From NCBI GenBank assembly GCA_965214095.1, contig OZ243938.1:736001-800000 (forward strand): DNA of 64,000 nucleotides. The letters run 5' to 3'. Made by a program: the position numbers and the translations under genes. This document shows positions 44,267 to 45,562 of the stretch, one piece after another (position 1 is the stretch's first letter; each line of letters begins with the position of its first letter). The notes under the pieces were generated by a model that was given only the letters and a program-made list of their open reading frames with translations, was not told the DNA's origin and made no database searches. Source of the stretch: Candidatus Poribacteria bacterium. Its GTDB lineage: Bacteria > Poribacteria > WGA-4E > WGA-3G.

Positions 44267-45028
44267 TTATTGAGCAGAAATAGAACCTTTAATTTGTCCC
44301 CACCGTGTAGCAAGTTTCCCTTCAGCCTCTACTGACAAAAACGCATCAAAACCATCACCTAATGCGTTGATCTCATCCTCATTGAGTGCTCGTGAAAGAA
44401 TTACAGCATCATCTATTGCACCACCATATCCTTCACCACCTTCACCACCGAGACGGTAGGTTGTATTAGCACCGCGGGTTTCTTGAAAGTCTGTTTCTTT
44501 CGCCAACTTGCCATTAACATATATCCTGTATTTCTTACCATCACTTTGAACGACAGCATGACTCCACTCACCTTGTTTGATGTCACCACCATCGGTTTGG
44601 CATAGGATAGTCCAACCCCCGACTTGTCCTCGCCATGACAATAGACCTTGTACGGAGTTAACAAAGAGAGTATTATGACCTGCGTCACCCGGTAGACTTC
44701 GCCAGATTTGTTGCCATTCTCCACCCTCAAATGTCGGATTGATCCATACAGAAAGAGTAAATGGGTCTGTCTTGAATAGATCCCCATGCAATGTTTCAGA
44801 TACCGTCATCTCAACGTGTGTACCGACATCAAGATGAATTGCTTCTTTAAATTCTCCATTATCCCAATTTGAACCACCTTTAATCACGCCATGGTTTTCG
44901 TTTCCTGATGAATCTTCTGCATCACCATCAAATGAATAGTATGCGACTAAAGCATCTTCTGCTGAAACACCAGTAATCAAGCACATAAGAAAAGCAGAAC
45001 ATGCCAATACAAATAACGTTCTTTTCAT
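44267..45028 (-). CDS. Secreted LamG/concanavalin A-like domain protein with C-terminal TxWGxxK motif
   Basis: Signal peptide, LVAYYSFDG.AEDSSGN, FTLSVWI, WSHAV, YVNG, IDD...RAL; ends VEAEGKLATRWGQIK. Confidence 0.88.
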   Translation of the reverse strand: MKRTLFVLACSAFLMCLITGVSAEDALVAYYSFDGDAEDSSGNENHGVIKGGSNWDNGEFKEAIHLDVGTHVEMTVSETLHGDLFKTDPFTLSVWINPTFEGGEWQQIWRSLPGDAGHNTLFVNSVQGLLSWRGQVGGWTILCQTDGGDIKQGEWSHAVVQSDGKKYRIYVNGKLAKETDFQETRGANTTYRLGGEGGEGYGGAIDDAVILSRALNEDEINALGDGFDAFLSVEAEGKLATRWGQIKGSISAQ

Positions 45029-45092
45029 CTAATCTTCGGGCAGGAGACCCAATCCTTTAGGTTTGGGAGGAATGCCCGCTCCTATGTTTTTC

Positions 45093-45121
45093 TTGACAAT
45101 AAATGTCAAACTTGCTAAAAT
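45093..45121 (+). promoter_or_regulatory. Sigma70-type promoter inside the element
   Basis: TTGACA-17 nt-TAAAAT. Confidence 0.75.
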
Positions 45122-45126
45122 ATATT

Positions 45127-45434
45127 CGGAAAGTTCAATCACACGTAGTCGTGTGTGAGGTTGTCCGCAGTCTTTGGTGCTATATGTTGCGGAGCATAAA
45201 ACTGAAAAACATATACGCTCTCACTACCATAGACACATAACAATTGAGTGGTAGGGACATGGGAGGTAAAAAACCCAGTCCGAAAAACACACTCTCAAAT
45301 AATAAGTTGCTCTTTTAGAGCAAGTGAGGTTGCTTAGAACCCACTGTGGAGACGAAATAAGACGGATGATCCTTTTGGTGAAACGCAACGTCTATGAAGC
45401 ACAAGCCCAACCCTTTAGGTTTGGGTACTATGAC
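45127..45434 (+). ncRNA. Candidate stand-alone omega-RNA (about 300 nt) with structured 5' extension
   Basis: Serial hairpins; 3' core TGTG-G-AGACG...CGTCT-ATGAAG-CACA plus terminal hairpin resembles IS605/TnpB right-end RNA. Confidence 0.6.
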
Positions 45435-45533
45435 CGTATACACTCCTTTTTGATCTCATTTTCAATATATTCTGTGAATTTTCGACACTATAGAAACAAT
45501 TAGACACTTTGTGCAAGTTTTTTTCTTTTAGCA

Positions 45534-45562
45534 ATACTATCACACATAAGAAATAATGTCAA
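45534..45562 (-). promoter_or_regulatory. Native sigma70-type promoter of the LamG gene
   Basis: Minus strand TTGACA-17 nt-TAGTAT; original RBS AAAAGGAG at 45443-45450. Confidence 0.6.

Follow-up and report, generated by a model that had tools for sequence, protein, structure and literature searches.

IS200/IS605 elements with TnpB and omega-RNA cargo are among the commonest prokaryotic mobile elements and are ancestors of Cas12. In IStrons, a group I intron is fused to IS605- or IS607-type ends, and the interrupted mRNA is restored by splicing. Another group, the PATEs, often encode omega-RNAs, with a TTCAT motif given for one Geobacillus element, according to parts of a preprint (Meers et al. 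2023). For the left end of IS200, excerpts of one study (PMC4513863) describe a hairpin that acts as a bidirectional terminator and a structured Shine-Dalgarno (SD) sequence of tnpA that is sequestered. In phage T4, a split SD has been described in which a hairpin cuts the SD-AUG distance from 22 to 5 nt (gene 38) and from 27 to 11 nt (gene 25) (PMC3014915, in part), and Neisseria REP2 or Correia-type repeats lie immediately upstream of ORFs, with a promoter, a ribosome-binding site and, in the case of REP2, an ATG (sections of PMC3184786).

Here, we analysed a window of 64,000 nt from Candidatus Poribacteria (contig OZ243938.1, positions 736,001-800,000 of the forward strand; assembly GCA_965214095.1), in which an insert sits antisense to a gene for a LamG protein (Laminin_G_3, E 3.2e-22; signal-peptide-like N-terminus), precisely between the native SD with its 8-nt spacer and the ATG (Table 1). 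Sequence comparison identifies the segment 45029-45434 as a gene-less derivative of a tnpB-only IS200/IS605 element; four copies, tnpB-element ends and empty alleles bear out the ORF-less IS200/IS605 identity that a sequence-only reading of this DNA had proposed. The genome carries four full copies (99-100% identity) and one left-end fragment, each of them immediately preceded by (T/C)TCAT, and the left end is 89-94%, the right end 78-80% identical to 1386-bp elements encoding a 373-aa TnpB. The coding capacity is nil, the ORF list holding only chance ORFs of 42-59 aa, and a tblastn search with 19 TnpB proteins found no TnpB coding remnant in the element (nothing below E 0.1). Subterminal hairpins of one type lie at both ends, both on the + strand, and covary in relatives; terminal inverted repeats are absent. 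Profile searches of the genome matched TnpA (Y1; PF01797) at 5 loci and TnpB (PF07282) at 22 loci, and elements that bear tnpA share a related hairpin core with it but differ in their end, GTTGAAT. A gathering search of the whole window gave no match to group I introns or any other Rfam family, and an E-value search of 44950-45520 gave one chance match (E 2.5); an IStron or group I intron identity was ruled out because these searches found no intron core. Like the PATEs, the element has no ORF, carries the end hairpins of its parent IS, inserts 3' of a 4-5-nt target without duplication, is presumed to be mobilised by TnpA in trans, and has a 3' part homologous to a tnpB-linked RNA region; a difference from PATEs as so far reported is that 65% of TCAT-type sites here are at antisense start codons. 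From the known mechanism of the family, mobilisation in trans would fall to the Y1 TnpA of the genome, and the 3' RNA would be used by a TnpB in trans.

The junctions could be read from empty alleles. LamG orthologues (95% identity) in two related genomes, G032 (L059) and G021 (L060), read ...AAAAAGGAGTGTATACG followed immediately by ATGAA..., with nothing between, so that the bounds of the element are 45029-45434 (a one-base c/c ambiguity remains), and comparison of the flanks with both alleles reveals no target duplication. The LamG start, ATGAA, is the reverse complement of the transposon target. The native site, AAAAGGAG-TGTATACG on the minus strand, follows beyond the right end; its SD is contiguous with the ATG in the empty alleles and now lies 406 nt away from it, and the host promoter-like site is upstream of this displaced SD. 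Both genomes show the junctions that the sequence-only reading had predicted, namely a seamless insertion 3' of TTCAT between SD and ATG, and removal of the element indeed restores a native AAGGAG with 8-nt spacing. RNA-library contigs resembling LamG are 94-98% relatives that end near 44945, and at 100% identity no RNA contig covers either the coding region of LamG or this copy's left junction, which says nothing about LamG expression.

Table 1. Features at the LamG locus, in window coordinates
Feature	Position	Strand	Basis
Host gene, secreted LamG/Laminin_G_3 protein, 253 aa	44267..45028	-	ORF list; Pfam PF13385
Target pentamer TTCAT, element integrated 3' of it	45024..45028	+	junction fixed by empty alleles
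ORF-less non-autonomous IS200/IS605-family element (PATE), 406 bp	45029..45434	+	4 copies 99-100% identical, tnpB-element ends
8-nt linker AAGATTAG (mRNA AAGAUUAG), hairpin foot to host ATG	45029..45036	-	sequence
Left-end compound hairpin, 42 nt	45037..45078		RNA fold, covariation
Outer stem CGGGCA/TGCCCG	45037-45042/45073-45078		covariation
5x5 internal loop, GGAGA (putative target guide) + AGGAA	45043-45047 + 45068-45072		RNA fold
Inner TnpA-type hairpin CCCAATCCTTTAGGTTTGGG (CCCAA...TTGGG)	45048-45067	+	sequence, covariation
SD-like AGGAG, directly 5' of outer stem	45079..45083	- (host mRNA)	kept among left ends
Element's promoter-like site TTGACA-17-TAAAAT with TG extension	45093..45121	+	11/12 matches
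Structured non-coding 3' half, omega-RNA-like, conserved	45245..45434	+	alignment of 14 sequences
Weak terminator-like hairpin, 7 pairs (3 G-C), U-rich tail	45307..45323	- (host mRNA)	scan
Right-end hairpin CCCAACCCTTTAGGTTTGGG (45406-45425) + 9-nt tail TACTATGAC to cleavage site	45406..45434	+	covariation
Displaced native spacer (TGTATACG) + native SD AAGGAG (45448-45443)	45435..45448	-	sequence
Host promoter-like site TTGACA-17-TAGTAT, TG extension	45534..45562	-	10/12 matches, consensus match only

Read on the host mRNA strand, the left end presents AGGAG, a 42-nt hairpin, 8 nt and AUG, in the predicted fold the layout of a split SD, and every sequence statement that had been made about this module proved correct. 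In the minimum-energy RNA fold, the hairpin forms and AGGAG remains unpaired; the inner hairpin begins at a distance of 19 nt from the left junction. In a covariation analysis of 53 distinct left ends, pairing holds in 95.6% of cells and compensatory change occurs in 9 of 13 pairs, a score that 0 of 500 shuffled controls reached, and for the outer stem these figures are 99.1% and 4 of 6 pairs. An SD-like pentamer is found in 50 of the 53 (AGGAG 31, AGGAA 13, AAGAG 4, AAGGG 2, other 3), and at 78 start-codon sites the foot of the hairpin is separated from the ATG by 8 nt in 39, 7 nt in 34 and 9 nt in 5. The expectation that AGGAG beside the outer stem would be conserved with covariation thus held, with AGGAG or AGGAA kept and 7-9 nt left to the ATG. 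Downstream of the hairpin, the mRNA strand reads AAGAUUAG and not a U-tract; on the top strand, CTCCT comes next, with a run rich in T. Outer-stem G.U wobbles are biased to the mRNA-sense strand (11 vs 2) and inner-hairpin ones to the top strand (17 vs 4; Fisher p 3e-4 for the contrast, with events that are partly related by descent); the asymmetry drops to 13 vs 4 (p 0.049) after left ends from a later scan were added by eye. AGGAG is present at 65 of 78 start sites vs 26 of 42 non-start sites (p 0.013), a comparison that is given no weight and is confounded by subfamily, the third batch of sites having been found with a motif-containing pattern. A sister subfamily, with a guide block ending in G, targets TCAC and keeps AGGAG/AGGAA, the stem and the 8-nt spacing without favouring starts, so AGGAG and the stem may serve the element itself. 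As in T4 genes 38 and 25, the SD is distant in sequence and an intervening hairpin would give a working distance, but here a 42-nt transposon end (50 to 8 nt) is mobile and delivered to many genes as a candidate split SD. With the IS200 left end the module shares its family, a left-end hairpin and structures involving an SD; the difference is that its SD-like motif is on the opposite strand and faces outward to the host gene, without a U-tract.

The right half of the element resembles the RNA-encoding part of its relatives. In an alignment of 14 sequences (A1), 6 of 20 predicted pairs show compensatory change, homology links the final ~110 nt to the right-end segment just 3' of tnpB genes, and related right ends all end in CTATGAC. 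RNA-library contigs, which carry no strand information, span 45073, 45114 or 45149 to 45434 with 0 mismatches and extend 26-27 nt into the flank of copy 4. The promoter-like site inside the element, a strong consensus match, runs from the left end towards the right end and is convergent with the host gene; the equivalent position is occupied in a full-length relative (L110, 65-93). The terminator-like hairpin covaries in relatives and forms, on the + strand, part of the conserved RNA. Both this strong convergent promoter-like site and the weak terminator-like hairpin on the mRNA strand speak against a module built for rescue, as does the presence of motif and stem in the TCAC-targeting subfamily.

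Insertions of this lineage are concentrated at start codons. All four full copies in the genome lie at SD-ATG junctions (ORFs of 253, 735, 996 and 704 aa), the right flank of each containing an SD-like motif, and 8 of the 12 TCAT-type left ends of this genome are at ORF starts (p 0.003). We pooled 151 de-duplicated sites, counting an insertion as a start site if it abuts the ATG of an ORF with 90 aa or more: among TCAT-type sites, 78 were at starts, 42 were not and 2 were unknown, i.e., 78 of 120 classifiable sites (65%) against an operational null of 25% from non-coding ATGAR sites (p 3e-20). These tallies show STATISTICALLY that, for the TCAT-targeting lineage, some two thirds of the independent sites are antisense start codons. 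The association with antisense start codons, which the sequence-only reading had put forward as targeting, is upheld for this lineage, in the four copies here as in the pooled survey, and is not seen in the TCAC subfamily with the same motif, where 4 of 26 pooled sites are at ORF starts (null 0.08, p 0.07). Almost all TCAT-type sites are in Poribacteria genomes. One record with a typical left end is titled only 'uncultured bacterium', and pattern-scan records from Synergistaceae, Chloroflexota, Lyngbya and Bryobacteraceae were rejected as left ends. The insertion density at start codons is ~9x that at other non-coding TTCAT sites and ~200x that at in-gene sites, with 78 sites at starts vs ~8 inside genes although in-gene sites are ~21 times more numerous. 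Motif frequency was rejected as the cause, ATGAR at called starts making up 3.8% of all sites and 20-25% of non-coding ones, and under a stricter ATGAAA-type null of 0.32 the start excess still has p 1e-13. All 16 reconstructed empty sites are non-coding and 14 are at ORF 5' ends, those 14 with an in-frame stop 1-29 codons upstream, and in 5 of 6 metabolic proteins behind insertions (NifU_N, PEPCK_N, glycerate kinase, glucosamine isomerase and PNK3P) the Pfam match begins at profile position 1-8 and residues 3-10, the sixth, a GHMP-kinase domain, being matched from residue 90.

Two natural cases concern the ribosomal protein gene rplO. In G020, an ORF-less relative of ~464 nt lies between AAAGGAA plus spacer and the ATG of a single-copy rplO (Pfam L15), a site found empty in G003, whose flanks are 97.9% identical, and in the other 27 genomes read for the genus; its outer stem, CGGTGT/ACACCG, represents three compensatory pairs. 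In L184, identical to G135, just 92 nt are left between rpsE and rplO-secY, closing with AGGAG, left-end hairpin, 8 nt and ATG. There the native TAAGGAATGGAG, present in 29 related genomes, is gone, and the left-end remnant is the sole SD-like motif. The layout of SD, hairpin and AUG is found at rplO in both L184 and L247, and the occupied rplO alleles lie upstream of secY. The rplO argument comprises two genomes, both metagenome assemblies, and L15 may not be strictly essential, since E. coli mutants lacking L15 have been reported. Within this scope, the single-copy rplO start sites lend indirect support to the view that insertion may be compatible with expression.

We consider it somewhat probable that the left end is a portable translation-initiation region, acting as a replacement ribosome-binding site for the host gene. 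Host transcripts would read through the element from the side of the host promoter and would have an A-rich tract, together with AGGAG, immediately 5' to a stable hairpin, whose 3' foot would be 7-9 nt from the host ATG. Folding of the hairpin would bring AGGAG to SD distance, i.e., form a split SD, so that the host gene would stay translated and start-codon insertions would be nearly harmless. That this genome makes use of SDs, with one at ~63% of called starts vs ~7% of random positions, speaks for this reading. Such a rescue would account for tolerance relative to in-gene sites, not for the ~9-fold excess relative to the remaining non-coding TTCAT sites. At the A/U-rich junction, initiation may instead be SD-independent. 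IStrons belong to the same superfamily and limit harm to the interrupted gene, as the Poribacteria element would; by contrast, the latter stays in the 5' leader, and rescue, if any, would act at translation initiation. The Neisseria repeats, too, are small repeats upstream of ORFs that supply expression signals, but they are not IS200/IS605 ends and bring their own ATG or promoter, with no seamless start-codon insertion described in the sections cited above, whereas the Poribacteria element reuses the host ATG. We found no literature report of a start-codon bias or of a ribosome-binding role for a left end; the supplements of Meers et al. may list insertion contexts.

The concentration at starts could also arise during integration, with TnpA, a host factor or a TnpB-linked factor directing insertion to TTCAT at start codons, the role of the left end being irrelevant and occupied orthologous sites spreading by homing or recombination. 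This has in its favour the ~9-fold excess, for which tolerance cannot account, and the history of shared sites: different species carry, at the same start codons, elements far younger than the sequence around them (99.2% identical vs 93-95%; in a second comparison, 1 difference in 396 nt outside hairpin blocks vs flanks of 83-94.5%), and at one site two genomes differ in the subfamily present (own copy 3 vs L072). For the same reason, i.e., the youth of shared-site elements relative to their flanks, purifying selection on host genes behind old insertions is unusable as evidence. The signals that might guide such integration do not set start sites apart, however. T is only mildly enriched at -5 to -7 (preferred at -5, 60-77%, and only mildly at -6 and -7), by which a longer T-rich target was rejected. 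Pairing with an antisense SD was rejected as well, an SD-like motif occurring in 8-11 of 14 start sites, like the ~63% of called starts genome-wide (vs ~7% of random positions), as was single-strand accessibility, the target being predicted unpaired with a mean probability of 0.56 at starts, 0.59 in intergenic and 0.58 in coding sites (250 sites per class, RNA parameters as proxy). Moreover, the mechanism known for the family reads 4-5 nt only (parts of PMC7290912). For the idea of replication orientation, GC skew proved too weak to place the replication origin. Every feature compared leaves the ~9-fold excess unaccounted for. We regard integration preference as a rather unlikely explanation. 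We give still less credence to a reversible on/off switch, i.e., phase variation of accessory genes by insertion and seamless excision kept by host-level selection. Precise excision is established for the family, empty and occupied alleles coexist among close relatives, and many of the hit genes encode secreted or regulatory proteins. Yet hydrophobic N-termini are not enriched beyond the ATGAR motif (42 of 78 vs 45% expected, p 0.16), and a secreted-protein bias was rejected on this count; core genes are hit too (rplO, NifU-like, PEPCK), and the G135 allele, reduced to a left end, cannot switch.

An ordinary tolerated PATE insertion would instead leave the gene knocked down or out, with AGGAG, stem and spacing being features of transposition or insulation, the SD look being the purine-rich complement of a pyrimidine-rich tail, and any residual translation being SD-independent. 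That motif and stem are equally conserved in the TCAC-type subfamily, with its lack of preference for starts, fits this account, as do the CTCCT and T-rich run after the hairpin on the top strand and the convergent promoter together with the terminator-like hairpin on the mRNA strand. The IS200 left-end hairpin, moreover, is a bidirectional terminator against impinging transcription (again from excerpts of PMC4513863), and the copies are all young (99-100%), so that intact ORFs prove nothing. On the other hand, nulls would predict far more in-gene insertions than the ~8 seen against 78 at starts, given ~21 times more sites; the single-copy rplO is hit in two genomes, in one of which the left end is the sole SD-like motif; and the AAGAUUAG that follows the hairpin in place of a U-tract, like the wobble bias of the outer stem towards the mRNA-sense strand, speaks against this account. 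We judge simple tolerance unlikely. It is quite improbable, finally, that the left end drives the host gene from inside the element by an outward promoter, whether or not an SD comes with it. The -35 region is palindromic (TTGACA-N5-TGTCAA), so that a TTGACA faces the left end too, and the G020 rplO element has TATAAT 6 nt upstream of AGGAG, but the matching -10 positions are otherwise poor and not conserved (CATAGG, TATAGG, GACAGG), consensus scans of the window element, L110 and L247 find no outward site near the left end, and a transcript starting there would put AGGAG at or before its 5' end.

Beyond the split SD as a replacement ribosome-binding site, we suggest, tentatively and with more doubt than confidence, that for a lineage in sponge-associated Poribacteria start codons may be a safe harbour, preferred ~9x, where a portable split SD would operate without splicing and remnants may be domesticated, leaving core genes such as rplO with no other ribosome-binding site. 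The choice of target in IS200/IS605 elements is generally taken to depend on just 4-5 nt. If true, the proposal would add a third route to transposon harmlessness, beside neutral safe sites and the self-splicing of IStrons, and would account for the presence of such elements inside core operons. Studies of initiation across large hairpins would gain a split-SD module that is natural and portable, and annotation a warning: an insert of 0.4-1.4 kb before an ATG need not mean a dead gene.

The element in front of the LamG gene belongs to the IS200/IS605 PATE kind, an identity that is firmly supported. Its left ~80 nt share 89-94% identity with the left end of 1386-bp elements encoding a 373-aa TnpB, its terminal ~110 nt share 78-80% identity with the stretch just 3′ of tnpB in those elements, and the same type of hairpin stands at both ends (at 19 nt from the junction on the left side and at 9 nt on the right side); no credible ORF and no TnpB coding remnant was found in the element. 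In the LamG orthologues of two genomes of the same genus (G032 and G021; 95% identity), we observed an empty site, AAAAAGGAGTGTATACG directly followed by ATGAA, and the insert is accordingly exactly 45029-45434 (406 bp), without target duplication. The sequence-only reading of an ORF-less element lodged between a ribosome-binding site and a start codon is thus borne out by the matching ends, the missing ORF, and the seamless junction. On the mRNA strand, 8 nt (AAGATTAG) separate the left-end hairpin from the LamG ATG, and the strand past 45434 reads AAAAGGAG-TGTATACG; the order AGGAG, 42-nt hairpin, 8 nt, ATG is the one described earlier.

Features of the LamG locus and of the left end of the element (window positions)
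Feature	Position	Strand	Remarks
LamG host ORF	44267-45028	-	253 aa; Laminin_G_3/LamG, Pfam E 3e-22
Target TTCAT	45024-45028	+	LamG start ATGAA read on + strand
Left-end hairpin, 42 nt	45078-45037	mRNA strand	between AGGAG and 8-nt linker
Internal-loop block GGAGA	45043-45047		not complementary to AGGAA block
Internal-loop block AGGAA	45068-45072		not complementary to GGAGA block
SD-like AGGAG	45083-45079	- (mRNA strand)	upstream of LamG ATG
Strong promoter-like site TTGACA-17-TAAAAT with TG	45093-45121	+	inward from left end
Palindrome TTGACA-ATAAA-TGTCAA	45093-45109		contains -35 hexamer of the promoter-like site

The genome of the window (G000; 5.2 Mb, 41% G+C) holds four full copies, 99-100% identical, plus a left-end fragment of 76 nt; (T/C)TCAT directly precedes every one of them. 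Matches to PF01797 (Y1 TnpA) occur at five loci in this genome, in IS605-type elements whose hairpin core is related and whose terminus differs. The 3′ half of the element (~45245-45434) is kept in other ORF-less relatives, its final 110 nt also in tnpB-linked right ends, and 6 of its 20 predicted pairs show compensatory change; no Rfam family matched the element, which we read as a PATE retaining a putative omega-RNA-like gene. RNA contigs from three sponge RNA libraries (two studies) cover 45073/45114/45149-45434 with 0 mismatches and continue past the right end for 26-27 nt of another copy's flank; as they carry neither strand nor transcript ends, all they show is the presence of the element in RNA libraries.

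Several variants accompany the element. The palindrome around the -35 hexamer is kept in several subfamilies (e.g., CTTGAC-N7-GTCAAG) and could serve as an operator or as a -35 used in both directions. In some copies (G000:C1:3279455-3279539 and 959495-959579, and the loci L029, L042, L145, and L223), the internal loop is converted to a perfect stem, GGAGA/TCTCC or TTCCT/AGGAA, and opposite conversions in two genomes at one orthologous site make up 10 of 11 differences in 406 nt. The conversion looks like template-switch correction of a quasi-palindrome and would be expected to abolish or hide the putative target guide. TCAC rather than TCAT is the target of a sister subfamily (G000:C1:915852, 2068374, 2163215, 3328842, 5063022, and relatives). 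A 48-nt mini-element (G000:C1:1717515-1717562), preceded by ...AATCA|T, joins the first half of a left-end hairpin to the second half of a right-end hairpin and a tail GCTATGAC; at G000:C1:1931295, a left end follows ...TTCAT-CTCCT, where AGGAG on the other strand abuts the ATG of a 251-aa ORF. Right-end-like hairpins with CTATGAC termini and no adjoining tnpB match (G000:C1:3131649, 3142553, 4067608, 4578179, 4999223) may be further ORF-less elements or remnants, and contig C2 (32 kb, 64% G+C versus 41% for the main contig) may be foreign or mis-binned.

All four full copies adjoin the ATG of long ORFs (253, 735, 996, and 704 aa) with signal-peptide or ECF-sigma N-termini, and their right flanks open with a 6-8-nt spacer followed by an SD complement; of the 12 left ends of TCAT type in this genome, 8 have a junction ATG that begins an ORF of 90 aa or more. 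We pooled left ends from 28 loci of relatives, 40 fetched stretches, and 102 loci identified by pattern-scanning a single genome for each species (9 matches without a recognisable junction, 1 at a locus edge), in which true left ends lay nearly all in records titled Candidatus Poribacteria. Removal of identical flanks reduced 167 junctions to 155, and merging of orthologous sites to 151 site clusters. TCAT-type sites fell at an ORF start in 78 cases and elsewhere in 42 (2 unclassified), TCAC-type sites in 4 and 22 (0 unclassified), and three sites of other type were all unclassified. For the null we used the window's genome with a crude gene annotation of 3770 ORFs (100 aa or longer), where 28,708 ATGAR sites divide into 1083 called starts, 4339 intergenic sites, and 23,286 in genes; the chance that a non-coding ATGAR begins an ORF of 90 aa or more is 0.25 (0.14 over all ATGAR sites), against which 78/120 gives p = 3e-20. 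Per-site density at starts is ~9x that of other non-coding sites, and in-gene density ~0.04x; ~8 of the 42 non-start TCAT-type sites may be in-gene. The 16 empty sites that were reconstructed all lie outside coding sequence; 14 of them mark the 5′ end of an ORF and are preceded, 1-29 codons away, by an in-frame stop. In several proteins with an element at the start, Pfam domains begin at the N-terminus. The association of TCAT-type elements with start codons is firmly supported.

Among the genes with an element at the start is rplO, encoding ribosomal protein L15. In the one-contig genome G020, the native AAAGGAA plus spacer is separated from the rplO ATG by a ~464-nt ORF-less relative; the site is empty in G003 (97.9% identical flanks) and in the 27 other genomes of the genus that were compared. 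The outer stem of the inserted relative, CGGTGT/ACACCG, includes three compensatory pairs, with AGGAG retained. On the host-mRNA strand, this element (L247:1941-2405) also has a perfect TATAAT, 6 nt before its AGGAG; scanning revealed no strong promoter-like site pointing inward. The second case, locus L184, is 100% identical to G135:C1:118700-118960, from a one-contig genome of a sister genus. Its operon runs S8, L6, L18, S5, 92 nt, L15, SecY, and the gap ends with AAAAAAAGGAG, the left-end hairpin, AAGATTTG, and ATG; no right end or element body was found in the 92 nt. In 29 other genomes of that genus, a native TAAGGAATGGAG plus 8 nt precedes the rplO ATG without a left end, and this native stretch is absent from G135, where the left-end module is the sole remaining SD-like signal before rplO. 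rplO is single-copy in all three genomes. On general grounds, a gene of this type located upstream of secY is expected to be expressed, with the caveat that L15-deficient E. coli mutants have reportedly been obtained, and the insertions are therefore compatible with expression. These two cases are the strongest, though indirect, support for the left end acting as a replacement SD.

In an alignment of 53 distinct left ends, taken in host-mRNA sense, 99.1% of outer-stem cells are paired and 4 of the 6 pairs vary in a compensatory way; 0 of 500 shuffles matched the covariation of the whole structure. As the pentamer 5′ of this stem, 31 left ends have AGGAG, 13 AGGAA, 4 AAGAG, 2 AAGGG, and 3 another sequence; AGGAG/AGGAA beside the covarying stem is conserved. 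At the 78 start sites, the stem foot lies 8 nt from the ATG in 39 cases, 7 nt in 34, and 9 nt in 5. The predicted minimum-energy fold of the leader contains the hairpin and leaves AGGAG unpaired, and the genome is a strong SD user. G.U wobbles of the outer stem fall on the mRNA-sense strand in 11 cells and on the top strand in 2, versus 4 and 17 for the inner hairpin, whose top strand is the TnpA substrate (Fisher p = 3e-4, with partly non-independent events; left ends from a later scan add 2 and 2 by eye). The motif might, alternatively, have no dedicated ribosome-binding role: The TCAC-type subfamily retains the same module, the block GGAGA is best read as a target guide, and the element carries a convergent promoter-like site and, on the mRNA strand, a weak hairpin of terminator-like type. 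The block ends in A in the TCAT type and in G in the TCAC type (GGAAG), in agreement with the family's guide-target pairing rule. On balance, it is plausible, with indirect support, that the left end rescues translation, and we lean slightly toward this reading.

None of the site properties examined accounted for the excess of starts over other non-coding sites. T-rich sequence 5′ of TCAT showed only a mild preference, antisense SDs were not commoner at occupied starts (8-11 of 14 versus 63% of starts generally), predicted target accessibility was the same across site classes, and the GC skew of the genome is too weak for testing replication orientation. Different species carry elements at the same start codons; these elements are far younger than the flanks, and one site holds different subfamilies in two genomes, a pattern that suggests spread by homing or recombination, or else strong re-use of sites. 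At orthologous starts (G000:C1:959174-959579 versus L029; L031 versus L076/L116), elements are far less diverged than flanks, for example, 99.2% identity versus 93-95%, or 1 difference in 396 nt versus 83-94.5%, consistent with homing or recombination rather than vertical descent; beside one such element, ~100-200 nt of flank are near-identical.

The left-end layout agrees with the split SD of T4 genes 38 and 25, as portrayed in PMC3014915. IStrons, a known relative of the idea, rescue by splicing. Parts of PMC4513863 describe the IS200 left end as a terminator that sequesters tnpA's own SD, and parts of PMC3184786 describe Neisseria REP2 and Correia repeats as suppliers of expression signals. 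Omega-RNA-only elements and the TTCAT target motif are already in print, in sections of a preprint by Meers et al. Full-text searches of open-access main texts returned no prior report of a start-codon niche or of an outward SD-hairpin module; within that scope, these two points are what is new here.
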